A DNA stretch of 64,000 bases from an uncultured virus (IMG/VR IMGVR_UViG_3300044977_000112) (Duplodnaviria; Heunggongvirae; Uroviricota; Caudoviricetes). Positions 13,874 through 39,659 of the stretch are shown here, one piece after another. Made by a program: the position numbers and the translations under genes. Location: the IMG/VR virus record IMGVR_UViG_3300044977_000112; one strand, given 5' to 3'. The first letter of the stretch is position 1, and every line of letters begins with the position of its first letter. The notes under the pieces are model-generated. The model was not told the DNA's origin. It ran no database searches and saw nothing but the letters and a program-made list of their open reading frames with translations.

Positions 13874-13911
13874 GGCACCGAACGATTTTTTTGTCGCGCT
13901 GGGATGCCTCA

Positions 13912-19432: not shown

Positions 19433-20122
19433 TTGAAAAAAAACGAGTCCAAAAGAGGTGCGGTGGTGGCGACGGAAGACACGAAAACGAAGCTTCAACC
19501 GAAGCAAATGCGGTTCGTGCAGGAATATCTCATCGATCTGAATGCAAGTGCTGCTTACAAAAGAGCTTATCCGAAAGCAAAACCCGAATCGGCATTATCC
19601 AATTCCACTCGCTTGATGCGAAAAGATAGTATTTGCATGGCTATAAAAGAGGCTCAAGACGAAAGATCAAAACGAGTCGAAGTCACTGCCGACGATGTCC
19701 TGCGCGAACTGATGCGTTTGGCCTTCGTCGATCCCAGAGCAATCATGAAATGGGGACCGGACGGTGTGATCTTGAAAGACTCCGATACACTTCCCGAAGA
19801 CGTTGCACGTTGTGTTTCAGAAGCGTCTCAGACCACCAGTTTGACGGGCGGTACGATTCGGATCAAGATGGCCAGTAAACTCGACGCTCTGGAAAAAATC
19901 GGGCGGCATCTGGGTATGTTCAAAGATAAGATAGAGATTGAAGGCAAAGTGCATCATACCACTTTGGATTTGACAAAACTCAGCGATGACACGATCAGAA
20001 CTCTTGAACAAGCTCTCGAAAAATCGGCTCCCAACCCGGCAGGAACTCAATCGGGAGAAGGCCCGGAGACTATCACATTTGCGCTGGAATCAGATATTCC
20101 TTCCGACCCACACGCCGCTTGA
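19433..20122 (+). CDS. terS: Terminase small subunit
   Basis: LQPKQMRFVQEYLIDLNASAAYKRAY..SKLDALEKIGRHLGMF. Confidence 0.9.
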   Translation: MKKNESKRGAVVATEDTKTKLQPKQMRFVQEYLIDLNASAAYKRAYPKAKPESALSNSTRLMRKDSICMAIKEAQDERSKRVEVTADDVLRELMRLAFVDPRAIMKWGPDGVILKDSDTLPEDVARCVSEASQTTSLTGGTIRIKMASKLDALEKIGRHLGMFKDKIEIEGKVHHTTLDLTKLSDDTIRTLEQALEKSAPNPAGTQSGEGPETITFALESDIPSDPHAA

Positions 20123-21551
20123 ATCCGCCCCCCTTCATTCGTGGATTTCCGCCAAGCTCGGTGAATTTTCACCAGTCAATGAACCATCTCGCCAACATGG
20201 TCGCAAACTGGCCCTGATCGCGCCGCGGGAGTCGGCCAAGACAACCTCGATAACTTTGGGTTATGCTCTGCGCTGTGCCCTTCAGGGCACCGAGCGTTAT
20301 ACAGTCATCATCTCCGATGAAGAAAAGAATGGTGCCAAGTTCCTTGCCGCGATCAAGAAGGAGATTCAGACCACACCCCGGATTCTAGCGGTGTACGGCG
20401 ATCAATCGACCCGCGAATGGCGTGAGGACCACATACGGCTCAAGAATGGATGCCTGATCGAATCGGCGGGAAGAGGATCGAAAATTCGCGGTCGCAAAGA
20501 TAGTCAAAACCGTCCCACGTTGGTGATCGTGGACGACTGCCAGAGCAACAAGGATGCGCGATCGCCCACGGAGCGGACGGTGGCTCTGGATTGGTTCTTG
20601 AAAGAAGTGATACCGGCAGGCAGCGAGAAAACCAACTTCATCTCCGTGGGGTCGGCTCTCCATCGTGAAGCCGTCTCTGTCCATGCCCAATCGCTCATCG
20701 GCTGGCAAGGTCATACGTTCCCCGCAATTATCTCTTATCCCGATGATCTAAGTCTGTGGAGTGAATGGGAACGGTTGGCGACCAACCTTGCTGACGATAA
20801 ACGCGAAGAGACAGCGCGAGCGTACTTTCATGCGAATTACGAAGCGATGTCCAAAGGCAGCAAGACCTACTGGCCATCCAAATGGCCCATCGACAAACTC
20901 ATGGCTCGACGTGCCGAGATCGGTGATGCCGCTTTCGAGACGGAATACCAAGGCGTTCCTACCACGCCCCAAGGAGCACGCTGGCCAGCCCACTATTTTG
21001 AGAACCTATATTTCGATCACTGGCCAGCGGATCTGGTATGCAAGGTCACGGCCCTCGATCCCAGCGAAGGGGCAACCGAAGATGCGGATTATCAAGCTCA
21101 TGCAATGGTCGGTATTGATGCGCAGGGCGTTTTTTGGATTGATGCTGTCGCGGTAAGGGAGCCGCCGCATTTGATGATTGTTCGACATCTGCGACTGGCC
21201 CAAGAGTTCTCGAAAATTAAGGGCTTGGGTAATATGCCGCTGCCGGTAAGTGCCGTGACGATGGAGGATAATGCGACGATGGGGCTGTTGCAGGCGGAGA
21301 TCGAACGTATTACCGAAGAAGAAGGAATTGTTTTGCCGTGGGATTGTTTGACGCAAACTATTCCTAAGCACTTGCGTGTAATCAGGGCTGATCCCTATTT
21401 GGCTCGGCGGCAAATTAGAGTGAGAAATACTAAAGGCGGCCGCGAATTGATTCAGGAATGGCGTGAATATCCTGTGGGGGAAAAAAAAGACGTGGCCGAC
21501 GCAGTATCTACCGCAATTGCAAGTATTCAATACTTGGCTATGGGGAAATAA
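19986..21551 (+). CDS. terL: Terminase large subunit
   Basis: APRESAKTT (Walker A), IRG..RPTLVIVDD (Walker B), FETEYQG, ALDPS nuclease motif. Confidence 0.92.
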   Translation: MTRSELLNKLSKNRLPTRQELNREKARRLSHLRWNQIFLPTHTPLESAPLHSWISAKLGEFSPVNEPSRQHGRKLALIAPRESAKTTSITLGYALRCALQGTERYTVIISDEEKNGAKFLAAIKKEIQTTPRILAVYGDQSTREWREDHIRLKNGCLIESAGRGSKIRGRKDSQNRPTLVIVDDCQSNKDARSPTERTVALDWFLKEVIPAGSEKTNFISVGSALHREAVSVHAQSLIGWQGHTFPAIISYPDDLSLWSEWERLATNLADDKREETARAYFHANYEAMSKGSKTYWPSKWPIDKLMARRAEIGDAAFETEYQGVPTTPQGARWPAHYFENLYFDHWPADLVCKVTALDPSEGATEDADYQAHAMVGIDAQGVFWIDAVAVREPPHLMIVRHLRLAQEFSKIKGLGNMPLPVSAVTMEDNATMGLLQAEIERITEEEGIVLPWDCLTQTIPKHLRVIRADPYLARRQIRVRNTKGGRELIQEWREYPVGEKKDVADAVSTAIASIQYLAMGK

Positions 21552-21624: not shown

Positions 21625-22017
21625 ACAAATGACAGGACAGCACGCCATCCTCACCATCAACGGCAAGCAAATTCTAATCAAGGAATGGCTAGCCGATCCG
21701 CAGGTGGATAGCTTTAATCCATCAAGTCATGGAGAATGGCTGTATCCGCCGGCGCTAATGCAGCGAGAGCAATGGTTCAATCTCGGCATCACATGCCGAG
21801 ATTGGCGCGGAGAGATTCCGGAAACAGGAACCTTGTTCGGACCGCTATCGGCTCGACTCAGAAGGCGACCGGGTATCGTGCGGATTCAGCAGGCTCAACT
21901 AACGGATTTTATGGCTCGCGAATCGCGAGCGATTCGCGATTCGCGAGCCGACTCTATTTGGGAAAGCGAATTCACCGCCCAGAGCGTCGGCCTATTCACA
22001 ATCGAGGAGGAATAGCG

Positions 22018-22611
22018 ATGAATCATGCGCATCGTGTCCGCGGTGTCATCCTGCGCCATCTCGCGGCTTTGGCCGAAGACTTGGGTCAGTTTGATCAGAC
22101 TTGCCACGGCGTATTGAGCCTTGGAGAGAAGCCGTGGGAGCAATTAGGCAAGCAGATCGGTTTGGTCGGCGAGCAGCCGACCGCGTTCAATATCTCAACG
22201 TTGGTGCAAGATATTGTTTTGATTTTGAAGAGATGCGGGTGGGATAAGCGGCCGGAGATCGAGCCGCGGATTTTGAAGGTTCATGAGATTCTTGCGGAGC
22301 CACAGACGATTCATGAAGCCGTGCACATGTGTGAGGACATGTGTCGCCGAGCCATCAATCGCATCGAGCACGAGAACATTCACCGCACGGGCTTTCATCT
22401 GTGCAGTTTTTTGTTGGGAAGAAACCGCGACGGGAATATCGAATTGCGGATGGAAATGACGAACGCTCCTCGTGAAGCTTATGCCCAGCTTCCCGACGGA
22501 ACAACTGTCAAGATTAATACGAACCATCTGGAAGCCACAGGAGATCCTATCTTGCGACATCCCGAAACAGGCGATATGATTCCTTGCTTGGAAGAACAGA
22601 AGCCTGTATAA
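22018..22611 (+). CDS. Hypothetical protein
   Basis: GAGGAGG RBS. Confidence 0.55.
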   Translation: MNHAHRVRGVILRHLAALAEDLGQFDQTCHGVLSLGEKPWEQLGKQIGLVGEQPTAFNISTLVQDIVLILKRCGWDKRPEIEPRILKVHEILAEPQTIHEAVHMCEDMCRRAINRIEHENIHRTGFHLCSFLLGRNRDGNIELRMEMTNAPREAYAQLPDGTTVKINTNHLEATGDPILRHPETGDMIPCLEEQKPV

Positions 22612-22681
22612 AAGACGAACGGGCGGCGTCTCCCAACGCCACCCGTTCCGAACAATAACCATGCTAAAAAGGAGCACGGCC

Positions 22682-23071
22682 ATGTCCGAAGTTAACGATA
22701 CCAATTCCACATATCAGCAACCACCCCTGACCAACGAGCAATACGTTCGTTTGGAGTTGACGAAGACCATTTGGCCCAATCTGTCGAACACACAAGCCAG
22801 AGCGGAATGGGCCGAAAATCTGGAGATGCTCACGAGGCAGATTCTGGGAGCCAATCTTCACCAGAGGCGAGAGACCCCCTTTGCCATTCTCAAGGATGGC
22901 ACCGTGGTTACCAGTGCGGAGGAGATGATCGGTAAGGTAGTGCGTCATGGTGGGGAGAGTTTTGTAATTTACAGAGCATATCCCAGACCCATAGGAGCGT
23001 GGCTTGAGGGCTACCGCGATGATGGCGCTGGTTGCGCCCGAAGAGCCGATGAATGCGAACTCGTTAAATAG
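22682..23071 (+). CDS. Hypothetical protein
   Basis: AGGAG RBS. Confidence 0.5.
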   Translation: MSEVNDTNSTYQQPPLTNEQYVRLELTKTIWPNLSNTQARAEWAENLEMLTRQILGANLHQRRETPFAILKDGTVVTSAEEMIGKVVRHGGESFVIYRAYPRPIGAWLEGYRDDGAGCARRADECELVK

Positions 23072-23109: not shown

Positions 23110-26100
23110 ATGTCCGCGAATTCCATCACCTCCGAAGAAGCCATCGCCCTCATTTCGTCTGAAGTGGTGCGCATCAACGAAGACGCACCACTTCCGAGTG
23201 CGAGATTCGTTCATCCTCATCGGCAGGCCAGGGTCAAGGTCCAGGAAAGCGGCTGGGGAACCGGGGACGGTAACCCTCTAACGGCTTTTATAGGCTGGAA
23301 TACTTCATACGCTCCATATGCTGGATTCTCTCCGGCCCAGTCCGGCCAACTCCCAAGCGGTTCCGGAGCGTATGGCGGCATCTACGGCGGCTACGGCGAT
23401 TCCAACGGACTGCTCGGCGATCGCACGGTATTCAATTCCAATCTCCCTCCCGGTATCTTCACCGAGATCCAGTGGCGGCTGATTCTCAGTGCTAATCGCT
23501 TCCTGCTCCAAGATAATCCCATAGCCGAGTCACTGTGTAACCGTGTCGCGGCTTACATTGGTCCGTGTCAGGTGCAATTTGTTCCCGAAGAAGTGGCTTT
23601 GTCTGGTGTCATGAGTGACGATGCCAGCGAAGACCCGGACGCCAAGGCGACTCATCTCCTGTGGAATCGCTTCCGGCAAAAGAATGCTTGGGGGCCGGCT
23701 CTGGGGACTGAAGATCGCGAGAAAGAGTTTCGCATCCGTCTGAGCCGAGATGGTGAAGCCATCATCCGTGTGGGGGCTGGGGATGAGGAAGCGGATCATA
23801 TTCCCTGGTGCCGGTTCGTGAATCCGGAACAATTGCGTTATCCGGCCGATGAAGCGGAACTGAGTTTCTACGGTCCGGATTACGATTGGCGGGAGGGCAT
23901 TTGCCGGCACAAGGACGACCCGGAAACACCGTTGGCGTACTGGATCTGTTATCCCGATTCTGGTGGCGGCAAGGGCGAAGAGGTGCCCGCGAAAAATATC
24001 ATCCGTGTGAAACTCGGCGTGGATGCGTGCATTGTTCGCGGCAATTCGGATTTCTTCAATGTCTCCAAACACCTCCGCGAGGCCATCACGATCCTGACGA
24101 ACATGGAAGGATCGACCCGCAAGCAAACGCAAGTCGATTGGATTCAGAAATATTCCAATGCCGTCGAGAACCAGGTCCGGCAAGCATTGCTCAAGCAAGG
24201 GTTCAACAAGGTCGATAACCAGGGCATGCCGATCGGGAGTGGTCAAGGCGGATTCGGGGGGCAAGGCGGGTGGGGCTTTCCGATGTACTCGATCGATGGG
24301 AGCTACATTCTGCACGTCAAGGATAATGTGGAATTCGAGGCTGGGCCAACGTCCACGGGCACATCGGGCTACCTTCAGGTTTACGACACGATTATCAAGA
24401 CCGTGCGGGATAAGTTTGGGCTGCCCGACGATGATGACTCAAGTTTCGCGGCCGCACTGGTAGATGGCTCACGCTTCGTCATCATCATCATCGAGCGTCA
24501 AGACCAGATCCGCGGAGCAGTCTACAAGTTGGCGAAAAGAGTAAGCGAACTGGGCGAAGAGAGCGGCAAGTTGGCGGCGGGTGTGGCGAAGCGGATCGAG
24601 CCCCTGGTCACGGCCAAGCCGCCTGTGAATGCGGACGAGGAAAAGAAGTCGCGCATGGGGCTGTCCGAGATCGATAAAGGTGTGAAGTCGCCGCAAGAAT
24701 TCATTCGTGAGCGCAACCGTAACCCGAAGCACGTGATAGCCGAAAACAAGGCATGGAAGGAGCAAGCCGGCCCACCGCCTGGAGAGAATCCGTTGGGCGG
24801 AGACAACCCGCCAGGAGGCGGCGGTTCGCCTGTGCCAAACCCAGGCCCGAATCCAACTCCACCGGGCAGCGCGGGCGGAGATGGGAGCTCGCCGAACTTT
24901 GAGGAATCGAAAGAAGTACGTGAGGAGTGGATTGAGGAACAGGCTGGACCGCACAAGTTCAGCAGCACGCAAATAAATCTTGTGGGAGAAGCCGCATATG
25001 CGATTCTGAATCTCGGCAAGCAGATCAAGTCGGAAGACTTGTGCGTGGAAGAGGGCGGCTGTGAGGAGGAACCACACGTAACTGTTCGCTATGGATTGCA
25101 TGAGGATGCGACTCAAGAGCAAGTCGCGGACATTGTTCACGCTCACGGACCAATCAAATTCTGGCTCGGAAAAATATCAACCTTCACGCGGCGTGATCCC
25201 GGCAAAGAGTACGACGTGGTGAAGGTCGATGTGGCTGGCGAAGACTTGGTGAAACTCAATAAGGCATTGGCTGTGCTGCCACACACCGACACCTTCAAAA
25301 CCTATAAGCCCCACGCCACAATTGCCCACGTCACGGCCGGGAAAGGCGACTCCTACGCCAAGAAATTTGGCTCGCTGGATATGGAGGTGATTGCGAATCG
25401 GGTAGTGTTTTCGCCAGCGGCACATAGCGGTCAAGCAGTGTTGATGCTGAACGAGAGCAACGCAATCACCGAGCACGCTCCTTCGCCTCCTTTCCCGGGC
25501 GGTGTCTTCAATGAGACATCCCACCACTGGGAGAAGCCGGCCGAGATTGCGAAGGCGGCAAAGCCATCCGCTCCTTCATTCGATGGCAAGATGCAGCAAT
25601 TGCTGAGTCATGCGAAGGGGCTGCCAAAAGCTCTCGCGGCGAAGGCATCTTCCTGGATTCAAGGGAAGTACACAAAACTGGCGGAGAGGTACGGTTCGAC
25701 TGGTGCCAAGGCGATTCTTGCGTCGGCTATTTTGCTAACGCCCGTTCCGTTGCCGGGCACGACGCTCATCCCAATTGCCTTGGCAGAAGGCGTGCGGAGA
25801 CTGTACGACGCGTTGAAATCCAAGAGGGTGACAGAGGAAGCACCCCTAACCCAAGAGCAGATTGAGGAAGAAGCCCGTAACTTGATTGAGGAGTTCAATG
25901 CGGCTTTTGAGGTCGTTCAAGAAGAGTCGCCTGTTGATGTGAACATCGCCGATCTCCTAGAGATCAACAGCCAGTTGAGCGAACAAGTTCGCGTGCAGGA
26001 AGAGCATCTTGCGAACCCTCCGTTTCCGGGCGGAGTTTTCAACGAAAACACGCATCGATGGGAGAAGCCAAACGCACAACCGACCTCGAAAAAAGCCTCT

Positions 26101-26589
26101 CAATCTGCTAAAATAGAGACAGAGAAGAAACCCGGTTTTGTGCATCAAACCAAGGGGGAAATCCCCAAAGAAGCGGGCCAGCAGTCCACCCCAGAGGAAT
26201 ATACGCACGCGGTCAAAATGGCCATCGAAAAGTTCAAGGTCGTTCCGAAACCGACTCGGGATGAATTGAAGCAAGCAAAGGCCGGTCTTGCCAAGCATGG
26301 AGCAAACAAGTATCGGCGGAATCTGGTTGGAAATACTGGCGACCGCCGCAAGAGACGGGAATCGTTGCTCAAAGAATTCGGCAACGGAAAGACTTGTCCT
26401 TGCATTTATTGCGGAGTGAAGATTGGTGAAGGAAGTCTAGAACAAGACAAGATTATTACCACGGCACAAGGCGGTAGATATAGGACTCCGAACCTCGTGC
26501 CATCGTGTTCGGGCTGCAATAAACAACGCGGCGATAAGCCGTTCGCGGAAATCGTCAAGAGGTTGATTCCACATGTCGAGACTACCTGA
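23110..26589 (+). CDS. Portal protein fused to 2H phosphoesterase (Acb1-like), hydrophobic hairpin and HNH-like domain
   Basis: Follows terL. Lambda-type portal motifs (RDGEAIIR, RFVNPEQL, PLAYWI, EEVPAKNIIRVK, RGNSDF); HVT/HAT pair; CIYCG..GG..NLVPSCSGCN. Confidence 0.85.
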   Translation: MSANSITSEEAIALISSEVVRINEDAPLPSARFVHPHRQARVKVQESGWGTGDGNPLTAFIGWNTSYAPYAGFSPAQSGQLPSGSGAYGGIYGGYGDSNGLLGDRTVFNSNLPPGIFTEIQWRLILSANRFLLQDNPIAESLCNRVAAYIGPCQVQFVPEEVALSGVMSDDASEDPDAKATHLLWNRFRQKNAWGPALGTEDREKEFRIRLSRDGEAIIRVGAGDEEADHIPWCRFVNPEQLRYPADEAELSFYGPDYDWREGICRHKDDPETPLAYWICYPDSGGGKGEEVPAKNIIRVKLGVDACIVRGNSDFFNVSKHLREAITILTNMEGSTRKQTQVDWIQKYSNAVENQVRQALLKQGFNKVDNQGMPIGSGQGGFGGQGGWGFPMYSIDGSYILHVKDNVEFEAGPTSTGTSGYLQVYDTIIKTVRDKFGLPDDDDSSFAAALVDGSRFVIIIIERQDQIRGAVYKLAKRVSELGEESGKLAAGVAKRIEPLVTAKPPVNADEEKKSRMGLSEIDKGVKSPQEFIRERNRNPKHVIAENKAWKEQAGPPPGENPLGGDNPPGGGGSPVPNPGPNPTPPGSAGGDGSSPNFEESKEVREEWIEEQAGPHKFSSTQINLVGEAAYAILNLGKQIKSEDLCVEEGGCEEEPHVTVRYGLHEDATQEQVADIVHAHGPIKFWLGKISTFTRRDPGKEYDVVKVDVAGEDLVKLNKALAVLPHTDTFKTYKPHATIAHVTAGKGDSYAKKFGSLDMEVIANRVVFSPAAHSGQAVLMLNESNAITEHAPSPPFPGGVFNETSHHWEKPAEIAKAAKPSAPSFDGKMQQLLSHAKGLPKALAAKASSWIQGKYTKLAERYGSTGAKAILASAILLTPVPLPGTTLIPIALAEGVRRLYDALKSKRVTEEAPLTQEQIEEEARNLIEEFNAAFEVVQEESPVDVNIADLLEINSQLSEQVRVQEEHLANPPFPGGVFNENTHRWEKPNAQPTSKKASQSAKIETEKKPGFVHQTKGEIPKEAGQQSTPEEYTHAVKMAIEKFKVVPKPTRDELKQAKAGLAKHGANKYRRNLVGNTGDRRKRRESLLKEFGNGKTCPCIYCGVKIGEGSLEQDKIITTAQGGRYRTPNLVPSCSGCNKQRGDKPFAEIVKRLIPHVETT

Positions 26590-29152
26590 AAACGGTTCGA
26601 GAGTATCGGCTCTGACTTATCAAAGCGACGAGTATGATCGCGCAGCGCAAAGAATCGAAGGCGTCTTGGCAACGCGATTCGTTCCGTCCTTGGACTACAT
26701 GCAATGCTGGGTCGATGGTGTACAAGTGAATCCAGACAGTGTGCATGAGTTGGGCGACGACGAAACCATTCTCGAAGAATCACCTGAAGAGGATCCTGCA
26801 AATGGCGATGTTCTCGCTCTGGCCATCGCCACGGCTGCAGAGCAAGGAGATCATGATTCCATCAATGCGCTCTTGAGACTGAGCAAGGATCAGGAAGGCT
26901 TGCATGGCCTGCTTGACGATCTCGGCGGTAGTGCCCACGAAAAGATAACTGAAGAGTACGTCGAAGAGGGTTGGTCTGCCGCCCAAACGAAGACGGGTAA
27001 ACTCAAAGCCGTCGGCAATGGGGAGCATGGTGGCAAGACTCTGTACGGCAAAGCGGCGGAACGGGCGTTGGGAATAAAGCGAAAGGAAAGTGAAGAGGAA
27101 GTCGCACAGAAGAAAGCGGCCCACGAGAAAACGGTTGCTGGCCTACGCAAGAAGATCGAAGCCCGCTCCGCGATCGATACGGCTTTAACTGATCCAGCCA
27201 AGCTCACTCACGAGCAATTACACGAACTGGCTGACCATCTGACGACCGTGAAGCGGGACGAACTGCGTGAGATCACTCGAGCCATTCGTGAGAAAGTGGG
27301 TGGCCTGAAAGCGGAATTGGCCGATCGATTGCTGGTTCATGTCAAGCAGCAACGAGAAATTCACGCTAGCCTCGACATGTCCAAGCTCGACGAAGAGACG
27401 CCAAAGGGACCGAGCAAACGCGGCCGCGATCCCGATAAGGAAAAGGATCGTGATGGTATGACGGGAGCGGAGCGGAAGGAGGCGGTGAGAGGTAAATCAG
27501 TTGGCCATCCAGCCATCGATTCATTACTCAATGCACGGCAATCCGCTTCGCCAAAGGTCAAGGATGCGATTGATGCCGCCCTTCACAATGTCGGCATTGA
27601 AGACCCCGAAAAGCCGCCGAAGAAGATTGACGCCGATCCCGAGAAGATTTCGCGGCGCCTGGTGAGTGTGCTGAATGACCTGGACACCAAGCCTGAGATC
27701 AGCGACCAGGACAAAGCCCCGATCATTGAGGCCCTGAAGCTCAATGGAGCGGAGCCGATTGGGACGAAAGGCGAAGTGGTGGATTTCGCGGGAAGTCATC
27801 ACGAGGGGCCGGCGGGAAGCTTCACGGGACATCGGCACGAGATCGTGAAGCCTGGATGGGTAATGAAACAGCCGGATGGGACGGAGCGAATTATTCAGAA
27901 AGCGGAAACAAAACCCACTGAAAAACCACAATCTGAGAAAACAACTGTTGACAAGTCTGGATCAGACAGTAATAGTACCCCTGTCGCTCCAAGTCCCACT
28001 TTGGGAGGAGCAAAACAGGGGGATGGGAAAATGGAAAAGCCCAGCAATACGCCAGATACGCGAACAGCGAACAAGCCAACGAAAAAGGATCAATTTGGCG
28101 AAGCGGGCAAAGATCATCCTGTTCAGGGCGTAGACAGAAAGCAGAGACTCGACGCATTGGCGAAGGCCGTACATAAAGGCTTCGGTGGCGACAGCGATCC
28201 GATGGGACTCCAGAAAGCGGGAGCCCCGAATGGCATTGACGTATCAAGCTTTGCCAATGATGTATCCGAAAGAATTGAGGAACGCGCAGTGGCCGGCACC
28301 GGAGTTGGGATGCGCGATCTCTATGATTCAGTCGGCGAAAAGTACGGCCTATCAAAATGGGACTTCCTGCGGGCCATGACAGCCGCGAATGATTTGGGAC
28401 GACTTCAGATGTCCAATTGGCACCAGACTCCGTTTGAGATTCCCGATCCAGAATTGGCCCCGGTCTTTGGGACGCGGATGCTATGGTGGGTCAAATCATC
28501 CCAGAAATCACCGTCGCCGGCCACTACCGCCGCCCCTGTCGCTCCAGAAAAGCCTTCTGGAGACAAAACAGGGGAGAAGAAGGTGGACGCAGTTCAAGAA
28601 CACCCATCCGTTGAGATCGCAAAAACCTGTCTCAATTCACGCGGAGGCAGTGGAGAATCTGTAGGACAAGCCAACCCCAAAATTCCGGACGCCGGGCGTC
28701 CGCACCTCAAGAAAGATGAGATTGCAGAGGTTCAGGATTATTTGGAAGAAGGAACTGCATACCACGAAATTAACGAAGAACTTAGACAGGGCGGGCGATT
28801 GCAGTATGGCGCGAAGACGCTTCAAGCCGCTATCGCCAAAGTTCCCAAGTTTTCTTCTCCAGTTAAAGCATCTCGCGGCATTGAAGTTCCAAAAGCCGAT
28901 CTGCCTGCGCTGCTCGAACAACTCAGGAGCGGTGAGTTCACTCATGCCGGTTTTGTCAGCGCTTCAACTCAAAGTCCGTTTCCGGGGAATGTCCAATTCG
29001 ACATAATCGCCCACCAAGGGCTTGATGCCAGTTTCTATGGAGCGAATGCTGGAGAGATTCTGCTTCCAGCAGGAACGCGGTTCAAGGTCAAGAGCGTGGA
29101 GCAAAAGGGCAACAGCGTGAAAGCCATCCTCGAACAAGTCGTGGAGGGCTAA
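26573..29152 (+). CDS. Mosaic protein: SAP/HeH-like, GrpE-head-like and C-terminal ADP-ribosyltransferase
   Basis: YHEINEELR..SRG..GFVSAST..GEILLPAGTRFKV (R-S-E ART); GEVVDF..HHE..IVKPGW..RIIQKA. Confidence 0.8.
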   Translation: MSRLPENGSRVSALTYQSDEYDRAAQRIEGVLATRFVPSLDYMQCWVDGVQVNPDSVHELGDDETILEESPEEDPANGDVLALAIATAAEQGDHDSINALLRLSKDQEGLHGLLDDLGGSAHEKITEEYVEEGWSAAQTKTGKLKAVGNGEHGGKTLYGKAAERALGIKRKESEEEVAQKKAAHEKTVAGLRKKIEARSAIDTALTDPAKLTHEQLHELADHLTTVKRDELREITRAIREKVGGLKAELADRLLVHVKQQREIHASLDMSKLDEETPKGPSKRGRDPDKEKDRDGMTGAERKEAVRGKSVGHPAIDSLLNARQSASPKVKDAIDAALHNVGIEDPEKPPKKIDADPEKISRRLVSVLNDLDTKPEISDQDKAPIIEALKLNGAEPIGTKGEVVDFAGSHHEGPAGSFTGHRHEIVKPGWVMKQPDGTERIIQKAETKPTEKPQSEKTTVDKSGSDSNSTPVAPSPTLGGAKQGDGKMEKPSNTPDTRTANKPTKKDQFGEAGKDHPVQGVDRKQRLDALAKAVHKGFGGDSDPMGLQKAGAPNGIDVSSFANDVSERIEERAVAGTGVGMRDLYDSVGEKYGLSKWDFLRAMTAANDLGRLQMSNWHQTPFEIPDPELAPVFGTRMLWWVKSSQKSPSPATTAAPVAPEKPSGDKTGEKKVDAVQEHPSVEIAKTCLNSRGGSGESVGQANPKIPDAGRPHLKKDEIAEVQDYLEEGTAYHEINEELRQGGRLQYGAKTLQAAIAKVPKFSSPVKASRGIEVPKADLPALLEQLRSGEFTHAGFVSASTQSPFPGNVQFDIIAHQGLDASFYGANAGEILLPAGTRFKVKSVEQKGNSVKAILEQVVEG

Positions 29153-29156
29153 TCCA

Positions 29157-29723
29157 ATGGGCTTACCGACACGAAATTGGGTCCGGTCCGGGATTGAGCG
29201 TTTGGATGGCCTGAAAAACCATTACGCCATTCTTTCGGAGAGGCAAATCAGATCGTGGTCCGAAAGAATGCCTCGCCTGGCAGTGTGGATTATGGAGTAC
29301 AGGACTACAGATGGAGTGATTCGATCGCGGCACTTGGCAAGGATCACTGATGATGTTTTCGGTGCCATTGCGTTCGCACGGCGCTGGGCCGGTGATGTCC
29401 GCAAGCTCGCCTCCAACACAGGTCTAAATGAATCGAGATATTGGGATACACGGACGAATCGCTATTGCCACGACTGGTTCGGGCGAATTCGGTTTGAACC
29501 GTTCAGCGATTTCGGTCCAGAAAACGAAAAGCACTATGGTATGACATGGGCGGACGAGGATCAGGAAGGCGTTCTGGAGGCGGTTGGCTTTGCTGAATTG
29601 GTGGTTCTTTCACCAGGAGAGGCACGGATTTTCTTTCGCAGGGTCTGCGAAGAATTCAAGGCGAATTGCAAAGGAAGAGATGGCGCGAGGTGGGCCGATT
29701 ATGCTCTTGAGAGGCTGCAATGA
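29157..29723 (+). CDS. Hypothetical protein coupled to the ART gene (candidate partner/immunity)
   Basis: Starts 4 nt after the ART stop; GGAGG RBS. Confidence 0.5.
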   Translation: MGLPTRNWVRSGIERLDGLKNHYAILSERQIRSWSERMPRLAVWIMEYRTTDGVIRSRHLARITDDVFGAIAFARRWAGDVRKLASNTGLNESRYWDTRTNRYCHDWFGRIRFEPFSDFGPENEKHYGMTWADEDQEGVLEAVGFAELVVLSPGEARIFFRRVCEEFKANCKGRDGARWADYALERLQ

Positions 29724-29935
29724 CCCCCCATACCCTCACCCAACTCCGCACCGCCCGCAAGCTCTCGGTCGCGGAATTGGCCAAGCTCACTGGCCTCTCC
29801 CGGGCCGCGATCTACAACTACGAGTCCGGGAAACGCAAGCCGACCTTCGAGGCTCTGTGCAAGCTGGCCACGGCTCTCAAGGTGAGCGTGGAGAAGTTTC
29901 GAGAAGTAATCGCCATTGCTCCGTCGTTCGGATAA
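29720..29935 (+). CDS. XRE-family HTH protein
   Basis: LRTARKLSVAELAKLTGLSRAAIYNYESGKRKP. Confidence 0.9.
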   Translation: MTPHTLTQLRTARKLSVAELAKLTGLSRAAIYNYESGKRKPTFEALCKLATALKVSVEKFREVIAIAPSFG

Positions 29936-29946
29936 GATAGCTCTTA

Positions 29947-32900
29947 ATGAGCCTCTTGCTTCTGGGAGCTGGGCCAACAACACCGTCGGTGTCTCCGCCA
30001 CCGCCCCCAAGCGGTGGAACGTACTGGGCTCCGGGCTACTTCGCTCCCAGATACTTCAGTCGCGGTTATTACGCGAAAGAAGTGGCAGCGGCAACGTTCA
30101 GGCTTTCCCCTAATTCCGGTCTCGTTTCGGCAAATACAAACACCATAGCAACGGGAACCAATACCGCCTGGACCAGCGGGACTATATTTTCGGCCAGTGG
30201 TGTGGCAGGTACGTCAGTAGTCACCAATTCAATCAACGTCGGCGCTCAAACCGCCAGCCTTACCATTAACGCCGGTTCAACACCTGGCCTGGCCACGATC
30301 GGCGATTCGACCGATACGGCCACTGCTCTTTTTTCGGTGTCGCCTCCACCTCCTCCCGCATCATTTTCTCTGTCGCCGTCTGGTGGCCCAAGTTCGACGA
30401 GTACGCCTGCCACGGCGACAGGGACGAGTACAAGTTGGACGAGCGGGACCACCTTTTCTTCGGGGGGGCTGGCAGGAACGACGGTAACAACCAATTCGAT
30501 CAATGCGGGGGCGCAGACGGCCAGTTTAACTGTGGTTGCTGGCGCGACTACAGGCGCGGCAACTATCAGTGATTCCACTGACTCAGCAACGGCGTCTTTC
30601 ACGGTATCGCCTTTATCTCCACCACCTCCACTTGTCCTCGACCTCGCTCCGTCTCCCGAGGCCGCTTACGTTGTCCCGGGCAATGCCGTCAACGACGTGT
30701 TTTGGCACAGCTCTCCATACGGAAGCATCACGTCGTACAAGGTCTATCGCAATACTGTAAACACGTTTGGCACAGCATCTATCATCCACACCGAGACGGG
30801 ATCGGCTCGCCAGTACACTGATACATCAGTGAGCAATGGCACGACATATTACTACTGGGTTACGGCGGTTAATTCTGTTGGTGAGGGCGTTGCTACTCCA
30901 GCCGTGACCTATCCCGCGAATGTGGCCTATCCAGCTGTCACAGCGGTAGTGCCAAGTTCGGTTTATCCCGCGACGATGCTCCCTGGATTTGTCGAATGGT
31001 GGCCACTCACAGAGACGAGTAACGGCACAACCACAGTTAATCGCAGTGGCACCAGTCCAGCCTACTGGACGAATCAGATGATCGATTACCCGCGAACGGG
31101 TAGTGGGTATGTCTCGTCAGTAACAGGCATCAACGGCAATCAAGCATGTCTCTTCGCCAGCGGGAACGCCCTCAATACGAACTGGATAGACCGTTTTTCG
31201 CCGGGTATTGGCAATCTGGGATACACGGCATTCATTCGCATCAACAAGACTGGCGGCAATCTCGGCAACATTTACTATGTTAGTTCCCAGGATGGTACTT
31301 ATCCAAACATCTCTGGCACAGTCGGCTATTTTGTAGTGTCATTCACGGCTCTTGGAGTTCTTACAGTATCGTCTATGGGTTATCGCGGCGGGGCAGTCAC
31401 CACAGTTACGTCATCGGTGACAATATCTTCAGGGCAGATCTATTCTGTCGCGGCCGGTTACGATCCAGTGAATAACTGGATATTCCTGATTGTGGTGGAC
31501 AATGCAACGAACACTTATCACATCAACATGTCCAGTCCATGCGGTCCGCAAGGTGTCTCTCGTTACGTTAACACGGCCTCACTCAGTGGCAACAACACGA
31601 CCTACGAGTGTTCGGTGTTTCGAGCTGCATTGACGCAGGCCCAGGTGATGTTCCTGCACAATTCGGGTGTCCCTTTAACCCCAACTCAGGTTCGCTTCGC
31701 CCCTCCTCTCGATCCAGGAACAGCGCCCTGGACTTGTTATCGTCAGTACAGCACGACCACTTTTGATAGCACGGAGCTTCGGCAGGGAGCCTATCCGGTT
31801 CCGGGGATGGCTTTTTACTGTGTTTATCCACTCTATCTTTGGAATCCCACATTAGCGGCATCGAAAGGAAGATATGTTTGGACGTATAGCGGCGACCACG
31901 TCAGCGGCACGACGAACGGGATCTGGATTGGGTTCAGTAATGATCGCGGCATACCACCTACTAGTTTCGTCAAGATTACCGGGGACGGTGGACCGAACGA
32001 CGGTTACACGTATGCGCTGCTGATCGGGCCATCGATCTTCAATGTTCCTACCGATCCCAGTTCTTTGCCTTTCTACGTCGTCTATCACGCATACGGCGGT
32101 GCTGGTTCTGGCGGCACACCTCAGCCGATGTACTTGTTCAATTCGGCGGACTTTGTTTCGTACACCGGTCAAGGTCCGATCATAATCCCTATCAACACGC
32201 CGATAATTAGGGACTTCGGCGGCTATCAGGTTGTGATTACTCCCAGTGGATTGCCGGGTGTTACTCAGTTCCATTTTTACGTTCTCGGTCAGGATTCCAG
32301 CGGTTCGTATTATTGCCTTCCGACTACCAATCCAAAAAATGTACTTCTGACGGCGGATACTCAACCGCTCGATTTCAATACGGCAATCGGTACGGCTCTA
32401 AGCAACGAGAACTGGAGTCAGGGCACTATCTTTTCGGTTACTTCCGGTGTGTATGCGAACGGTACTTCCAGCCTCGACTACAGCCGTGGTGAAAGCATCG
32501 TTCAGTTGCTTCAGGACGGCGCGACAACGCAGTGGAGAATCCCGAACGGAAAGTGTTGGCGGTTCGGTCCAATCGACACAGCCGCTTACCCCGCGATAGG
32601 GTATACGCAGTATGTGAAAGGCCTGACCGAGAGCGGCATCTTCGGCAACTATCGTCTGACGGGATATAGCGGCACATCGGACGGTACGTCAAATCTGATT
32701 GGTGAGTTTGTCGGTTTTGAAAGTGCGGTATTCGACGTGACAGCTGCGATGAGCGCGGTTCCTTTCGGATGTTATGCGACCGTGGCATCGGGCGTGCCGT
32801 CGATAGTGATGTGCGATGCTTTACCTCATCGCAGTTTCAATCTGTACCGTACGCTTTATGGCGGCAGTCCGTCTTTGATCGGCACGTTCCCCACGACGCC

Positions 32901-34260
32901 AAGCAATAATCTGCTCACGTATGCGGACAATGCGGCGTCTCTTAATCAGAGATATAGTTACCAAGTCGCGACGAATAACGCGGGTACGTTGACTTATGGA
33001 GCTGTGATCTGGTGTACGCCATGCACCGTGACGGCCACGCCCGCCCCGAATACCGTGACGATTGCTTTCACTGCGAATACCGCGGGGGCAACTTACAACC
33101 TGTATAAGTTCCCGGTTTCTCTGTTCACATGGTATTTGACCACCGCGTACCAAGTGGCAACGGGGCAGGCGGCAGGCAGTATCTTGTGGACCGCGGGCGG
33201 TGACACAACAACGTATGCTTTCATGGTGACGGAAGTGATCGGTGGCGTGGAGTCGGTCTGCTGCATGATCCAGTCAGCGGCCCAAGCTCCGACGGCTTTG
33301 TTGAACTACACGCCAGCGACATCGGGAGGCACACTCACACGATCCAGCGTTGCCAGCTACTTGAATGGCTCTCAAGTGTGGACATCAGTCAGTTCCAACG
33401 TATTGCGTAACAGCCATCAGGTTTTGAATCCCAACACGAGCTTATATGAAACCACGACGTTGCTGGAAGTCAGTCGGGTAAACCCATTTCTTAATTCAGC
33501 CGCACCGGCAACCCAGAGTATCAGTCTCGCGACGAATAGTTACATCCTGTCGGTCTACGGTACAGGATCTATCGCCGTCACCGGGGCAACCACGGGGAAT
33601 GGTACGGCCTCCGCAGGATCGCCGTTATTGTTCACGGTGGCCAGCGGCCCTATCAGCGTAACTTTCACAGTCACCGGAACTCTTACCAACGCCCAGGTCG
33701 AGGCCGTTACTTCCAGTGTCACAGTCAATGGATATTCATCACCGATCCTCACCACAAGTTCATCGGTTACCCGCCAAACAGAGACATACAGTCTGCCCTA
33801 TTCCGCGGCCCCTCAATCGATGACGGTCTACGTTCGGATGTTCGATGCCGGAATCGCCGGACTGGCATCTAACGCCTACGTATTCACCATTGGCGGCTCA
33901 TCGGGTTCGGCTCTACGTATTGAGCGAACCAGTACGGCATGGGCTGTTACATATGACAATGCTTCGACGAGTACATTAACTGAGAATTTGACCAAGACCA
34001 ATAACCGTGGCGACCTGATCGAATTGCGGGCGGTCATCACGGCCACGGGGCAAATTTATATCGGCTGCTCTGTCAATGGTGCGGCGGAGACAGTTTCTTC
34101 GACATCCGCCGCCAACGGGATCGCCCCGAGTTGGAACGCGGCGACGTGTTGGTTGAACTCAAATGCGACCTTCACGTATGGTCTGTGCGCTTTCACGAAC
34201 GTCTACGTGGCGGCTGGTGTTTATACGCTGGCTCAAATGCAAGCACTAGCGGGGACATAA
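29947..34260 (+). CDS. Large fibre/adhesin protein (tandem Ig-like repeats, FN3, LamG-like domains)
   Basis: Two ~85-aa repeats (FxLSP..TGT.T.WTSGT.FS); YKVYR..YTDTSV.NGTTYYYWVTAVNSVGEG; Ser/Thr/Gly rich. Confidence 0.8.
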   Translation: MSLLLLGAGPTTPSVSPPPPPSGGTYWAPGYFAPRYFSRGYYAKEVAAATFRLSPNSGLVSANTNTIATGTNTAWTSGTIFSASGVAGTSVVTNSINVGAQTASLTINAGSTPGLATIGDSTDTATALFSVSPPPPPASFSLSPSGGPSSTSTPATATGTSTSWTSGTTFSSGGLAGTTVTTNSINAGAQTASLTVVAGATTGAATISDSTDSATASFTVSPLSPPPPLVLDLAPSPEAAYVVPGNAVNDVFWHSSPYGSITSYKVYRNTVNTFGTASIIHTETGSARQYTDTSVSNGTTYYYWVTAVNSVGEGVATPAVTYPANVAYPAVTAVVPSSVYPATMLPGFVEWWPLTETSNGTTTVNRSGTSPAYWTNQMIDYPRTGSGYVSSVTGINGNQACLFASGNALNTNWIDRFSPGIGNLGYTAFIRINKTGGNLGNIYYVSSQDGTYPNISGTVGYFVVSFTALGVLTVSSMGYRGGAVTTVTSSVTISSGQIYSVAAGYDPVNNWIFLIVVDNATNTYHINMSSPCGPQGVSRYVNTASLSGNNTTYECSVFRAALTQAQVMFLHNSGVPLTPTQVRFAPPLDPGTAPWTCYRQYSTTTFDSTELRQGAYPVPGMAFYCVYPLYLWNPTLAASKGRYVWTYSGDHVSGTTNGIWIGFSNDRGIPPTSFVKITGDGGPNDGYTYALLIGPSIFNVPTDPSSLPFYVVYHAYGGAGSGGTPQPMYLFNSADFVSYTGQGPIIIPINTPIIRDFGGYQVVITPSGLPGVTQFHFYVLGQDSSGSYYCLPTTNPKNVLLTADTQPLDFNTAIGTALSNENWSQGTIFSVTSGVYANGTSSLDYSRGESIVQLLQDGATTQWRIPNGKCWRFGPIDTAAYPAIGYTQYVKGLTESGIFGNYRLTGYSGTSDGTSNLIGEFVGFESAVFDVTAAMSAVPFGCYATVASGVPSIVMCDALPHRSFNLYRTLYGGSPSLIGTFPTTPSNNLLTYADNAASLNQRYSYQVATNNAGTLTYGAVIWCTPCTVTATPAPNTVTIAFTANTAGATYNLYKFPVSLFTWYLTTAYQVATGQAAGSILWTAGGDTTTYAFMVTEVIGGVESVCCMIQSAAQAPTALLNYTPATSGGTLTRSSVASYLNGSQVWTSVSSNVLRNSHQVLNPNTSLYETTTLLEVSRVNPFLNSAAPATQSISLATNSYILSVYGTGSIAVTGATTGNGTASAGSPLLFTVASGPISVTFTVTGTLTNAQVEAVTSSVTVNGYSSPILTTSSSVTRQTETYSLPYSAAPQSMTVYVRMFDAGIAGLASNAYVFTIGGSSGSALRIERTSTAWAVTYDNASTSTLTENLTKTNNRGDLIELRAVITATGQIYIGCSVNGAAETVSSTSAANGIAPSWNAATCWLNSNATFTYGLCAFTNVYVAAGVYTLAQMQALAGT

Positions 34261-34263
34261 TAA

Positions 34264-35940
34264 ATGGCACTCGGGGCTAACTCAATCATTGATGTAAGGT
34301 CTGGCGGCTCAGACACTGCCAATGGCGGTTCATTCAACACTGGATACAGTGGCTCGTTGACATTCCCATCCGACGGAGCGGCAACTGTCGCCAACACGAG
34401 CAGTCCAGTATTCTCGTCGGCCAGTTATAATTTTGTTTCCGGCGATGTGGGCGCATGGCTTTACATCAAGTCCGGTAGCGGATGGATTCCTGGCTGGTAT
34501 CAGATTGCTTCAGTATCTTCCAATAAAGCCACTCTGACGGCCGGAGTTGGTACAGCAGTGTTGTTTTTTGAAGGCGCCCCGACCGGCTGGAACACGGTTG
34601 CCGGTTGCGCCACTACCGCTAGCCCCACTACCGCGACGTGGTCAATTGACTACAGTCAACAGCAGGCCGCCCAGTTTGCTCCGACTACTTACAGTAGCCC
34701 AAGTTCTTCAGCGTCAGCTATTATGAACTGGTCTGGTGCGACCAAGGCGATGGTCGGCAACGGGGTAGTCATTCCGACGGGCGTAACCGGGGCCACCGCT
34801 GGCTACTACCAGATTATTTCCGCCGTGGCCGGGACCAGCATTTCTTTTGATCGAAACTGGAACACGACCACAGTGACAACTGGTGGAGCGGCAATTGGCA
34901 TCGGTGGGGCATTGGCAAGTTACGGCATGGCGGCATCGATTGCCACGGTCGGCGGGATGTTGGTAGCGGTTAAGTACAACGCTTCTGTTTATCAAGCCAC
35001 CACGGCATCGACCAATGTCAGTGGCGGGTGTGTTTCCGGTGTGGCGGGCGTCATCTATTTTGGGTGGAATACACAGCGCTGGGTTGGCAATAATGATACG
35101 AGCTTGCCGACTTTTCAAATTGGGTCGGGAGTCGCGACGGCCACGCTGTTTGGTAATGCCTCGATTTATGCCGTTTGGAATATGATTTTGGATGGCAATT
35201 CGCAGACAACTTCAATCGGAGTGCGTACCAAAGGTATCGCCAATAATGTTCTGTTCAAGAATTTCACCGCTGGCGGTTTTCTGGACAATGGTTCTTCAAT
35301 CACTATTCCGAGCCTCTGTCAATTTTGCCAGTTCACGGGCTGTTCGCTGGTTGTCCCGTGCCAGGCGGCTATCGCTGATACGTGTGAAGGATATTCCAAC
35401 ACAATCACCCCTTTTACTGTCGGGTTCGCCAAGGACTGTCTGGCTTACGGCAACACTGGATCTACAGTGGACGGATTCTTGAACTGCACTCATATGGCAA
35501 ATTGCGACGGGTGGGACAATGGCCGAGACGGATCGCATTACACCACAAATTCAATTTTGTATACTGCCAATAACTGTATCATGGAAGATAATGTCGGCAA
35601 CGGCTTTAATGTGACGATCACCGCATCTACACTATTTTTACAGACATGCGCCACCTATGCGGGTGCAAATAGTCAAGTACGCAGTGCGACATCAGGATTT
35701 TATATCCAAGATGTGAATCCCCAGTCCCAGACATCGGGAAGTTATTTCACGAATGCCGCAGGCGGCGTGTTCCAGTTGAATGCTACTGGCGGCCAAGGTG
35801 CTACACTGAAGGCGATTGGTTACCCGGCAACGTTCCCGGCGGGATTGACCAACAACTACGCTGATGTGGGAGCCGCGCAGAGCCAAAATACGGGCGGAAC
35901 GTCGAGTATACTAGTTCCAATCCAGATGGATGCTCCATAA
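34264..35940 (+). CDS. Virion protein with beta-helix (pectin-lyase-like) region
   Basis: VRSGGSDTANGG N-terminus; NC..xxN..xG repeats; DVGAAQ C-terminus. Confidence 0.7.
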   Translation: MALGANSIIDVRSGGSDTANGGSFNTGYSGSLTFPSDGAATVANTSSPVFSSASYNFVSGDVGAWLYIKSGSGWIPGWYQIASVSSNKATLTAGVGTAVLFFEGAPTGWNTVAGCATTASPTTATWSIDYSQQQAAQFAPTTYSSPSSSASAIMNWSGATKAMVGNGVVIPTGVTGATAGYYQIISAVAGTSISFDRNWNTTTVTTGGAAIGIGGALASYGMAASIATVGGMLVAVKYNASVYQATTASTNVSGGCVSGVAGVIYFGWNTQRWVGNNDTSLPTFQIGSGVATATLFGNASIYAVWNMILDGNSQTTSIGVRTKGIANNVLFKNFTAGGFLDNGSSITIPSLCQFCQFTGCSLVVPCQAAIADTCEGYSNTITPFTVGFAKDCLAYGNTGSTVDGFLNCTHMANCDGWDNGRDGSHYTTNSILYTANNCIMEDNVGNGFNVTITASTLFLQTCATYAGANSQVRSATSGFYIQDVNPQSQTSGSYFTNAAGGVFQLNATGGQGATLKAIGYPATFPAGLTNNYADVGAAQSQNTGGTSSILVPIQMDAP

Positions 35941-35956
35941 CGAGAGGTGGTTTCTA

Positions 35957-36475: not shown

Positions 36476-36485
36476 GGGGTAGGCT

Positions 36486-37388: not shown

Positions 37389-37666
37389 TAGGATAAAGAA
37401 GTGGATTGTTGAAGGTAATCTGAAGCTAAGAGGCAAGCCATGAACCCAAACGAACTCTACGATTTCAAGCCTGAAGACATTAGCTCGATGGTCAACCCGC
37501 TGGATCTGCCGCCAGAACAAGTCGATGCGATTCTGGGAAGCGAATTTATGGGGCAGTTGCGGGTTGCGCAGAACGAGCCGCTGATTGCTAATCATTACAC
37601 GATAGTCAGTATCGGCAAACCAAAGTACACTCTTAATCGAGGTTGCGGTCTCGGAAGCAGTTTTGA

Positions 37667-39268: not shown

Positions 39269-39269
39269 G

Positions 39270-39656: not shown

Positions 39657-39659
39657 GAT

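Follow-up and report, generated by a model that had tools for sequence, protein, structure and literature searches.

A lambda-type portal polyprotein with candidate prohead-protease sites between its enzyme modules in an uncultured tailed phage

The record IMGVR_UViG_3300044977_000112 (IMG/VR; Caudoviricetes) from an uncultured virus was analysed over a stretch of 64,000 nucleotides, referred to below as the window. An open reading frame (ORF) at 23110-26589 encodes a true lambda-type portal protein with enzymes covalently attached to it, the ORF directly downstream ends in an ADP-ribosyltransferase (ART) domain, and an ORF at 40401-41624 encodes a putative prohead protease-scaffold; the three share a short motif centred on Glu. 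We give a probability of roughly 0.55 to the reading that the portal ORF encodes a polyprotein precursor which is cut in the prohead by the gp21-fold protease and whose cargo is ejected together with the DNA. It is carried by the architecture of the ORF, the fold of the protease, the enrichment and conservation of the motif and the position of its copies at module borders and indels; cleavage after Glu, retention in the capsid, exit with the DNA and the targets of the cargo we infer. Proteases of the T4 gp21 type cut after Glu in (L/I)-x-E and mature internal head proteins such as Alt, an ART. To our knowledge, very few phage proteins delivered with DNA are known outside model phages. Proteins entering with the DNA act before transcription and would therefore form a first line against bacterial immunity.

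Architecture of the portal polyprotein

The portal family phrog_21 matched residues 120-556 of the protein (E 5e-26), and an AlphaFold (AF2) model built from 33 sequences was confident over residues 105-556 only, residues 1-101 and 557-625 being of low confidence. The best Foldseek matches of this core were two chains of the lambda portal, 8xow_B (E 1.2e-11, prob 1.0; TM 0.53, target-normalised) and 8xot_B (E 3.0e-11). Family PF05136 gave no match to the window portal at E <= 0.01; many relatives match it, several above its cutoff. The gene adjoins the terminase genes, two small ORFs apart. A previous reading made from the letters and ORF list alone (the sequence-only reading) had proposed enzymes tethered to a portal, which the match of the core to 8xow_B bears out, and the order that it gave (portal, Pro/Gly linker, 2H phosphoesterase, hydrophobic hairpin, HNH variant) is present as described (Table 1). 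Its motifs were likewise all located, at portal residues 22, 44, 603, 780, 786, 907, 936 and 962, at residue 66 (ILEESP) and residues 125-132 (ITEEYVEEG) of the ART ORF, and in the protease-scaffold (VREEAP, ICEDAP, VKEEG, ITEEAP and VEEEAP).

The N-terminus is a putative propeptide with two sites, and an alignment of 33 homologs shows E46 of the second, V-Q-E-S, in at least 90% of them. At the other end of the core, the block that closes the Pro/Gly linker (24859-24897) is nearly identical in 30 of 151 proteins (P0001 and the 150 listed homologs described below). The module after the linker was matched by PF13563 at residues 654-743 (28.2 bits, cutoff 27) and has both H-x-T motifs of a 2H enzyme intact, at residues 656 and 735. 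A profile of the portal-fused 2H domain found Acb1 (9q2g_A) as its best match in the PDB, weakly and below family cutoffs (E 0.0071, 19.3 bits); the Acb1 family PF23474 gave no match in the window protein, and the 2H domain sequence alone gave none in the PDB.

The strongest hydropathy peak of the portal protein, residues 869-887, lies in the helical hairpin module, where two short hydrophobic arms (residues 869-879 and 885-895) surround a Pro-rich turn. This module is kept in the portal relative P0004 and in the MuF protein P0005, and an ESM Atlas search with it gave no usable match. Two helices separate it from the second copy of a beta-hairpin element. In the C-terminal module HNH_5 (PF14279) matched residues 1098-1150 (33.5 bits, cutoff 27.5); its CxxC pairs are kept, with four Cys invariant in the alignment, and the tail is 65% identical to that of P0005. 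Both these proteins have D-K in place of the canonical D-H, and a homolog from a Gordonia phage reads H-D-K. PADLOC and NCBIfam scans added no assignments.

A gp21-fold protease fused to a scaffold

The protease was modelled with AlphaFold from 10 homologs. For its confident N-terminal region the sole Foldseek match at E <= 0.001 was T4 gp21 (5jbl; E 2e-5, prob 1.0), with a target-normalised TM of 0.65. In an all-against-representatives alignment (VIA), 5jbl_A was the sole chain with Z >= 8 among 48,161 (Z 13.2, rmsd 3.0, 142 of 165 residues), followed by the varicella-zoster virus (VZV) protease at Z 5.5. As modelled, the N-terminal domain of this ORF has the T4 gp21 prohead-protease fold, in agreement with the gp21-type protease-scaffold foreseen from the sequence. 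Beyond this domain the protein consists of helices and disordered acidic linkers, which suits a scaffold; a profile of the protease-scaffold gave chance-level matches only in the PDB and Pfam. Motif positions are partly conserved among the 10 homologs: judged by eye, that of V-R-E-E-A-P has hydrophobic-x-E in eight, one of them shifted by one residue, and that of I-C-E-D-A-P has [IL]-x-E in eight, and I-T-E-E-A-P is kept in five.

Enrichment of the motif

In its strict form, [VILM]-x-E-[ED]-[AS]-P, the motif has eight matches in the six-frame translation of the window, all of them in the portal (three), the ART ORF (one) and the protease-scaffold (four). Expectations were obtained from 5000 composition-preserving shuffles per protein. 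The three copies in the portal compare with 0.03 expected (reached by 1 of 5000 shuffles), the four in the protease-scaffold with 0.01 (0 of 5000) and the single copy in the ART ORF with 0.02 (118 of 5000). The 44 other + strand ORFs picked as likely genes from the ORF list (13,077 aa) contain none, against 0.10 expected, which is the outcome of the comparison with other proteins that the sequence-only reading had called for. A broader form, [VIL]xE[ED][ASGHW], is also enriched in the portal (8 against 0.66) and the protease-scaffold (5 against 0.36), in each case reached by 0 of 5000 shuffles, and is not enriched in the ART ORF (1 against 0.64) or the other ORFs (4 against 3.87); plain [VIL]xE[ED] in the ART ORF is not significant (4 against 2.19; 867 of 5000 shuffles). 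Between modules the consensus is aliphatic-x-Glu-Glu/Asp-Ala/Ser/Trp/His, often followed by Pro.

Codon usage differs across the eight strict sites, which indicates selection on the peptide rather than a DNA repeat, and a DNA-level repeat or recombination site was ruled out on the same ground as the source of the motif. Because the motif was defined post hoc, on the very proteins in which it was counted, independent data were sought in relatives. Among homologs of the protease-scaffold, searched with the motif as defined on the window, three strict copies each were counted in P0156, P0158 and P0159, where 0.01-0.02 would be expected and 0 of 5000 shuffles reached as many, and one in P0157. The contig listed for P0156 has the same length (66,058) as that of the portal relative P0004, and these two are the one portal and protease among the relatives that could be paired.

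Relatives of the portal protein

An exhaustive HMMER search with the portal part returned 644 homologs at E <= 0.001, and the counts given here are from the 150 listed. At least 700 aa are found in 109 of these and at least 900 aa in 53 (the non-portal P0005 excluded). Pfam scans of 46 long homologs gave lambda-type portal matches (PF05136) together with diverse cargo: 2H (P0006, P0009 and P0044), topoisomerase IB (P0004), an ATLF-like domain (P0019), TGL (P0055), LAGLIDADG (P0051) and SAP (P0029); in P0009 an Acb1 Pfam match lay below threshold. In the 1442-aa P0051, LAGLIDADG_3 occupies residues 612-675, just past the portal core, and may be an intein or homing-endonuclease insertion.

P0004, the closest relative among the matches listed, shares 44% identity over the portal and has an HExxH region and topoisomerase IB as cargo. 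It lacks the 2H module through a clean indel between two motif sites, and its module borders carry E-E-W-I-[ED]-E four times, at the same positions as E-E-A-P or E-E-H in the window; V-T-E-E-A-P (residues 907-912) is thus the positional equivalent of V-Q-E-E-W-I-E-E. Past the linker block, a hydrophobic-x-E-[EDSAGH] site follows within 35 aa in 23 of the 25 relatives that extend at least 60 aa, and random windows, taken as controls, averaged 7.2 of 22 when drawn from the portal core and 5.2 of 24 when drawn from other parts of the extension. Comparison of these sequences supports the cleavage-site reading, since the cargo varies and the Glu site after the portal linker persists. The expectation of varying cargo and persisting motifs that had been voiced earlier therefore holds for the junction Glu site; the strict form did not persist in distant relatives.

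The relatives also bear on the suspicion that the long ORF is an artefact of assembly or gene calling, which the origin of the record as a metagenome-type contig might raise. This is extremely improbable: the collinear P0004 is encoded on an independent contig, the adjacency of portal and 2H recurs in P0006, P0009 and P0044, extensions to at least 900 aa are common among the listed homologs, and the ORF runs over 3.5 kb with no stop or frame break.

A further feature shared with relatives is the beta-hairpin element of about 20 aa, which is Pro-rich, reads G-x-V-[WF], 4-5 residues, H-x-W, and has no family assignment. The window portal has two copies and 17 of the 150 listed homologs have one each (P0004, P0022, P0023, P0030, P0041, P0048, P0052, P0068, P0077, P0094, P0098, P0099, P0103, P0125, P0131, P0139 and P0141). 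As seen by eye, an x-x-E-small site lies 3-8 residues upstream of all 19 copies in these 18 proteins. The element could be a protease docking site or a handle of the released fragment.

A C-terminal H-E-x-x-H region, noticed by eye in P0004, P0006, P0011, P0012 and P0014, has no Pfam match and on its sequence looks like a zincin-type peptidase. Processing by such a metallopeptidase, or by a host protease, in place of the prohead protease would agree with the metallopeptidase-mediated processing proposed for polyvalent phage proteins (Iyer et al. 2017; PMC5512222). Pfam scans found no metallopeptidase domain in the portal or ART ORFs, and the motif is common to these ORFs and the gp21-fold protease-scaffold protein itself, so that we regard this explanation as very unlikely.

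In the cultured Gordonia phage ChisanaKitsune (MZ820089.1, 1729-9556), consecutive genes encode a portal-MuF protein, an Acb2/Tad1-hairpin protein (71 aa, E 2e-20), a 2H protein, a VIP2-like ART and a homolog of the HNH tail (the homology lying within a 969-aa protein), an arrangement that looks like an anti-defence island attached to a portal gene. The cargo set that is fused in the window is thus found as neighbouring genes in the Gordonia phage, and so travels with portals of different families. A cyclic-nucleotide sponge domain encoded beside the Gordonia 2H gene would suit a 2H enzyme that acts against signalling, and the weak Acb1 match of the portal-fused 2H profile points the same way. 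In tblastn searches of cultured phages the domain-level matches were to 2H and HNH only, with none to the protease, and portal searches of viral, metagenome and genome contigs, with a single sequence or an alignment, gave no confirmed related locus.

Fate of the cargo

Cleavage at these sites need not lead to delivery. The extension might be discarded, as scaffold and delta domains normally are once cut, or its enzymes might do their work in the cell that makes the phage, with HNH assisting packaging as a cofactor and 2H repairing RNA, and nothing functional would be delivered. Five portals of the clade terminate 5-39 aa past the conserved linker block, so the extension is dispensable for portal function; the HNH module lacks the canonical His, and HNH proteins beside terminase and portal genes are known packaging factors. 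We nevertheless think this outcome unlikely. The catalytic motifs are intact in 2H (two H-x-T) and in the ART (S-x-S and Glu regions), the modules are folded domains of 15-25 kDa that would hardly escape a closed shell, and the Gordonia phage retains this cargo set next to its portal gene. The C-terminal side of portals faces the capsid interior, away from the terminase, and a free-standing second HNH endonuclease is encoded upstream of the terminase genes (13870-14391); the latter is more likely the packaging-type HNH than is the portal-fused one.

The ART ORF

The start of the ART ORF overlaps the stop of the portal ORF by 17 nt, and its ATG at 26573 is preceded, at a distance of 10 nt, by a Shine-Dalgarno-like AAGAGG; the database version of the protein begins at M43. 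A frameshift fusion of portal and ART was considered and is unlikely, as the ART frame stays open for no more than 9 nt ahead of the ATG and no slippery sequence was seen by eye in the 17-nt overlap. The SAP-like module matches the portal profile phrog_21 and is therefore part of the portal protein itself in some phages; by eye, a segment resembling it occurs in the portal relative P0006. The C-terminal domain was matched by PF03496 with a score barely above the cutoff (E 3.9e-5; 23.5 bits, cutoff 23.4) and by 6dre_B (E 1.2e-6) and 6drh_B (E ~1e-6) in the PDB, the S-x-S and catalytic Glu regions being aligned; Ala replaces the first Glu/Gln of the E-x-E pair. The relatives P0166 and P0167 have T-Q-E-H-P in place of V-Q-E-H-P before an ART that is 84-85% identical. 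The ART ORF has no match to the MuF domain PF04233, and scanning its parts at E <= 5 gave none either; the ORF is placed as MuF toxins are, directly downstream of the portal and with a C-terminal toxin-type domain. An ORF of 188 aa and of no known family follows directly (29157-29723) and is a candidate immunity or antidote protein against the ART in the producing cell.

Placement of the sites and points against processing

That the motifs fall in linkers, as the sequence-only reading had it, was confirmed in part. Three of the four strict copies in the scaffold protein fall within segments of pLDDT < 50 or at their edge (residues 150-162, 264-299 and 357-388); the remaining one, at the protease N-terminus, and the portal copies at residues 481 and 663 are in folded parts. 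The copy at residue 481 (L-G-E-E-S-G, from 24550-24561) is also a conserved portal feature, with E483 and G486 present in at least 90% of 33 homologs.

Besides the post hoc definition of the motif, a number of observations weigh against cleavage and delivery as we propose them. The model makes V-R-E-E-A-P, at the N-terminus of the protease, a beta-strand that belongs to the fold. Among copies of the extended motif, residue 481 is inside a portal helix (pLDDT ~95), residue 663 is within the folded 2H domain, and residues 918 and 925 are inside a helix. The cargo half of the portal model is mostly at pLDDT < 50, and linker placement of the cargo motifs is therefore weakly supported. The strict motif is absent from the distant portal relatives P0006, P0007 and P0009, the ART relatives P0166 and P0167 and the distant protease homologs P0160 and P0161, and what appears general across the aligned relatives is only a looser x-x-E-small pattern. 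Searches of the protease ORF against Pfam, PHROGs, NCBIfam and PDB sequence profiles gave no protease family match, and His61 and Ser118 are putative catalytic residues on conservation only (both are invariant across the 10 homologs). HNH may be inactive, to judge by the loss of its canonical His, and the ART ORF, encoded separately, would need its own way into the capsid. The delivery concept itself, that of injected polyvalent proteins fused to portal or MuF domains, is already known, as far as the accessible text of Iyer et al. (2017; PMC5512222) goes.

The copies in predicted helices or strands would also suit acidic linker or docking peptides, binding for instance scaffold or shell, on a polyprotein that stays intact on the portal. 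The E-E-W-I-E-E variant resembles an acidic-aromatic interaction motif, and the constant coupling of motif and hairpin element in relatives could make of them one binding unit. Set against this, the same motif recurs where the protease domain ends and in the disordered linkers of the scaffold, where autoprocessing is expected; the third-position Glu is invariant and its flanks drift between lineages, as is typical of a P1 residue; the sites lie exactly at the borders of module indels between relatives; and Glu-specific proteases with the gp21 fold are documented (PMC10052503, in the portions of the article accessible to us). A purely docking role therefore seems rather improbable.

Proposed mechanism

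Under the favoured reading, in which the precursor is processed in the prohead, twelve precursors would assemble as the portal with their C-terminal cargo toward the capsid interior. The protease, activated in the assembled prohead, would cut after Glu at the motif sites, trimming the portal N-terminus, digesting the scaffold and freeing 12 copies of each cargo. Being too large to leave the shell, the freed proteins would exit with the DNA at infection and act before phage gene expression. Likely roles are degradation of nucleotide immune signals or repair of RNA ends for the 2H enzyme, modification of a host protein for the ART and membrane interaction for the hydrophobic hairpin. More tentatively, portal linker, Glu site and the roughly 20-aa hairpin handle might constitute a clade-wide loading grammar into which any enzyme can be plugged for release in the capsid in exactly 12 copies and delivery at the very onset of infection, the case in hand being an Acb1-like 2H enzyme that is pre-packaged and destroys cyclic-nucleotide immune signals ahead of expression. 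On this scheme the shared motif would make it possible to predict, for uncultured phages, the protein content of the capsid interior from sequence data only; we consider this broader scheme possible and rather doubtful.

Comparison with known systems

Polyvalent phage proteins are predicted to travel in the head and to enter the cell along with the DNA (Iyer, Burroughs, Anand, de Souza and Aravind 2017; PMC5512222). The accessible text of that study explicitly describes 2H domains fused to portal or MuF domains and suggests that 2H degrades nucleotide immune signals; it ascribes processing to zincin-like metallopeptidase domains, and within it 'prohead' appears only in the reference list. As in the polyvalent proteins described there, several unrelated enzymatic domains occur per polypeptide among virion genes (portal, 2H and HNH in one, and the ART ORF); unlike them, as far as that text covers them, the window proteins have no zincin-like domain that we could find, and their module borders carry the candidate site motif of a gp21-fold prohead protease.

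The protease has the same fold as T4 gp21, phiKZ gp175 and SPN3US gp245. Proteases of this group cleave behind Glu in a three-residue motif, process themselves and process the portal and ejected internal proteins, an ART among them in T4. The gp21-like gp245 has A-x-E as its motif, with the cut behind Glu, and frees the portal from a long propeptide, and all identified cuts in SPN3US other than the self-cleavage of the protease release N-terminal propeptides, according to the parts of the source consulted (PMC10052503). Unlike the SPN3US sites described there, most sites in the window come after the portal core and between cargo modules. The motif also differs from that of gp21-type systems in extending to P1'-P3' ([ED]-[AS]-P), the protease is fused to a scaffold, and it has no sequence-level similarity to those proteases.

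MuF polymorphic toxins, of which ARTs make up 14%, have been proposed to be delivered with phage DNA (Jamet et al. 2017; PMC5576092); proteolytic release is not discussed in the text available from that article, in which 'cleav' has no occurrences. The ART ORF resembles the toxins described there in its place right after the portal gene and in the toxin-like domain at its C-terminus, and the relative P0005 is a MuF protein with the same HNH tail and hydrophobic hairpin. Unlike those toxins, the ART ORF has no detected MuF domain, and cargo in the window is tethered to the portal itself.

In the lambda head module (portal B, protease C, scaffold Nu3, decoration D, capsid E) B is the closest in fold to the window portal, and the order in the window is protease-scaffold, a 355-aa ORF and a weak capsid-E-like ORF. 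Unlike here, B has no C-terminal cargo; in the window, moreover, about 11 kb of other genes stand between portal and protease. The lambda protease belongs to a different fold class. With the anti-CBASS phosphodiesterase Acb1, the 2H module shares the fold family and two H-x-T motifs, the similarity being weak. Acb1 is a free protein expressed after infection and is not known as virion cargo. The lambda portal loses 21-22 N-terminal residues (PMC3224144, as given in the part consulted).

Among the titles and abstract openings returned by literature searches, subscription journals excepted, none described prohead-protease sites between portal-fused cargo modules, and the link of portal-fused cargo to the site grammar of a gp21-type protease appears to be new. 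If the motif marks prohead-protease cuts, effectors delivered from the capsid could be sought in metagenomes by a rule that needs only sequence. Such cuts would also account for the way in which polyvalent portal fusions become separate working enzymes and would represent a natural design for loading defined protein copy numbers into a capsid.

Genome context

The window has the look of a tailed-phage genome, and almost every long ORF in it is on the + strand; the features discussed are collected in Table 1.

Table 1. Positions of the modules, candidate sites and neighbouring ORFs in the window
Feature	Position	Strand	Evidence or remark
Terminase small subunit TerS	19433-20122	+	
Terminase large subunit TerL	19986-21551	+	phrog_38, E 6e-64
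Two small ORFs, no assignment	21736-23071		between terminase and portal
Portal polyprotein precursor, 1159 aa	23110-26589	+	translation; phrog_21; 2H and HNH matches; AF2 model
Putative N-terminal propeptide, two sites	23110-23259	+	pLDDT < 50 over residues 1-101
Strict motif INEDAP, residues 22-27	23173-23190	+	
V-Q-E-S site, residues 44-47	from 23239	+	
Portal core, lambda type, ~residues 105-556	23422-24777	+	AF2, Foldseek
Pro/Gly linker	24778-24915	+	ends in P-P-G-S-A-G-G-D-G-S-S-P-N, residues 584-596
Junction motif V-R-E-E-W-I-E-E-Q, residues 603-611, portal/2H border	24916-24942	+	modelled coil, pLDDT 34
2H phosphoesterase module, ~residues 612-779	24943-25446	+	PF13563; both H-x-T motifs
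Junction sites L-N-E-S and I-T-E-H, residues 780-789	25447-25476	+	modelled coil
Beta-hairpin element copy 1, P-P-F-P-G-G-V-F ... H-x-W	25477-25539	+	modelled hairpin at residues 799-808
Helical hairpin module, hydrophobic tip, residues 824-907	25579-25830	+	helices 840-875 and 887-907
Strict motif V-T-E-E-A-P, residues 907-912	25828-25845	+	helix end in model
Strict motif V-Q-E-E-S-P, residues 936-941	25915-25932	+	helix end and loop in model
V-Q-E-E-H site, residues 962-966, then beta-hairpin copy 2 (from ~residue 967)	25993-26070	+	copy 2 at 26008-26070
HNH-variant module, ~residues 1029-1159	26194-26586	+	PF14279, phrog_960
ART ORF, 859 aa, multi-module	26573-29152	+	translation; PF03496; PDB matches
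Strict motif I-L-E-E-S-P, residues 66-71, N-terminal region	26768-26785	+	
I-T-E-E-Y-V-E-E-G, residues 125-133	26945-26971	+	
SAP-like module, residues 198-261	27164-27355	+	phrog_21 profile positions 937-1000; weak SAP match
V-Q-E-H-P site, residues 674-678, immediately before ART	28592-28606	+	
ADP-ribosyltransferase domain	28607-29149	+	PF03496; 6dre_B, 6drh_B
~11 kb of Glu-poor tail-like ORFs (fn3, beta-helix)	29157-40064		
Prohead protease-scaffold, 407 aa	40401-41624	+	counted from M28 of a longer GTG ORF starting at 40320
Protease domain, residues 1-149	40401-40847	+	T4 gp21 / herpesvirus-protease fold (modelled); confident AF2 region
Strict motif V-R-E-E-A-P, protease N-terminus	40407-40424	+	
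Strict motif I-C-E-D-A-P, end of protease domain	40866-40883	+	pLDDT < 50 at residues 150-162
Strict motif I-T-E-E-A-P, scaffold part	41292-41309	+	overlaps end of low-confidence segment 264-299
Strict motif V-E-E-E-A-P, near C-terminus	41499-41516	+	inside low-confidence segment 357-388
355-aa ORF, no assignment	41666-42733		
Capsid-E-like ORF, weak	42960-44048		E 0.021

Glu makes up 7-12% of the motif-bearing ORFs of the head module against 0.5-1.6% of other structural ORFs (34264-35940, 0.5%; 41666-42733, 0.6%; 44400-45353, 0.9%; 29947-34260, 1.6%). Avoidance of Glu by capsid proteins was dropped as an argument, tail-like proteins being just as poor in Glu, and the low content may simply follow from a composition rich in Ser, Thr and Gly and need not mean that a Glu-specific protease is being avoided.

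As listed, the TerS and TerL ORFs share 137 nt, and the real TerL start may be further downstream. Near the free-standing HNH gene upstream of them lie a PAPS-reductase-like ORF (12889-13563), an ORF for an Erf-like annealing protein (9818-11425) and a transposase-like ORF (2724-4055).

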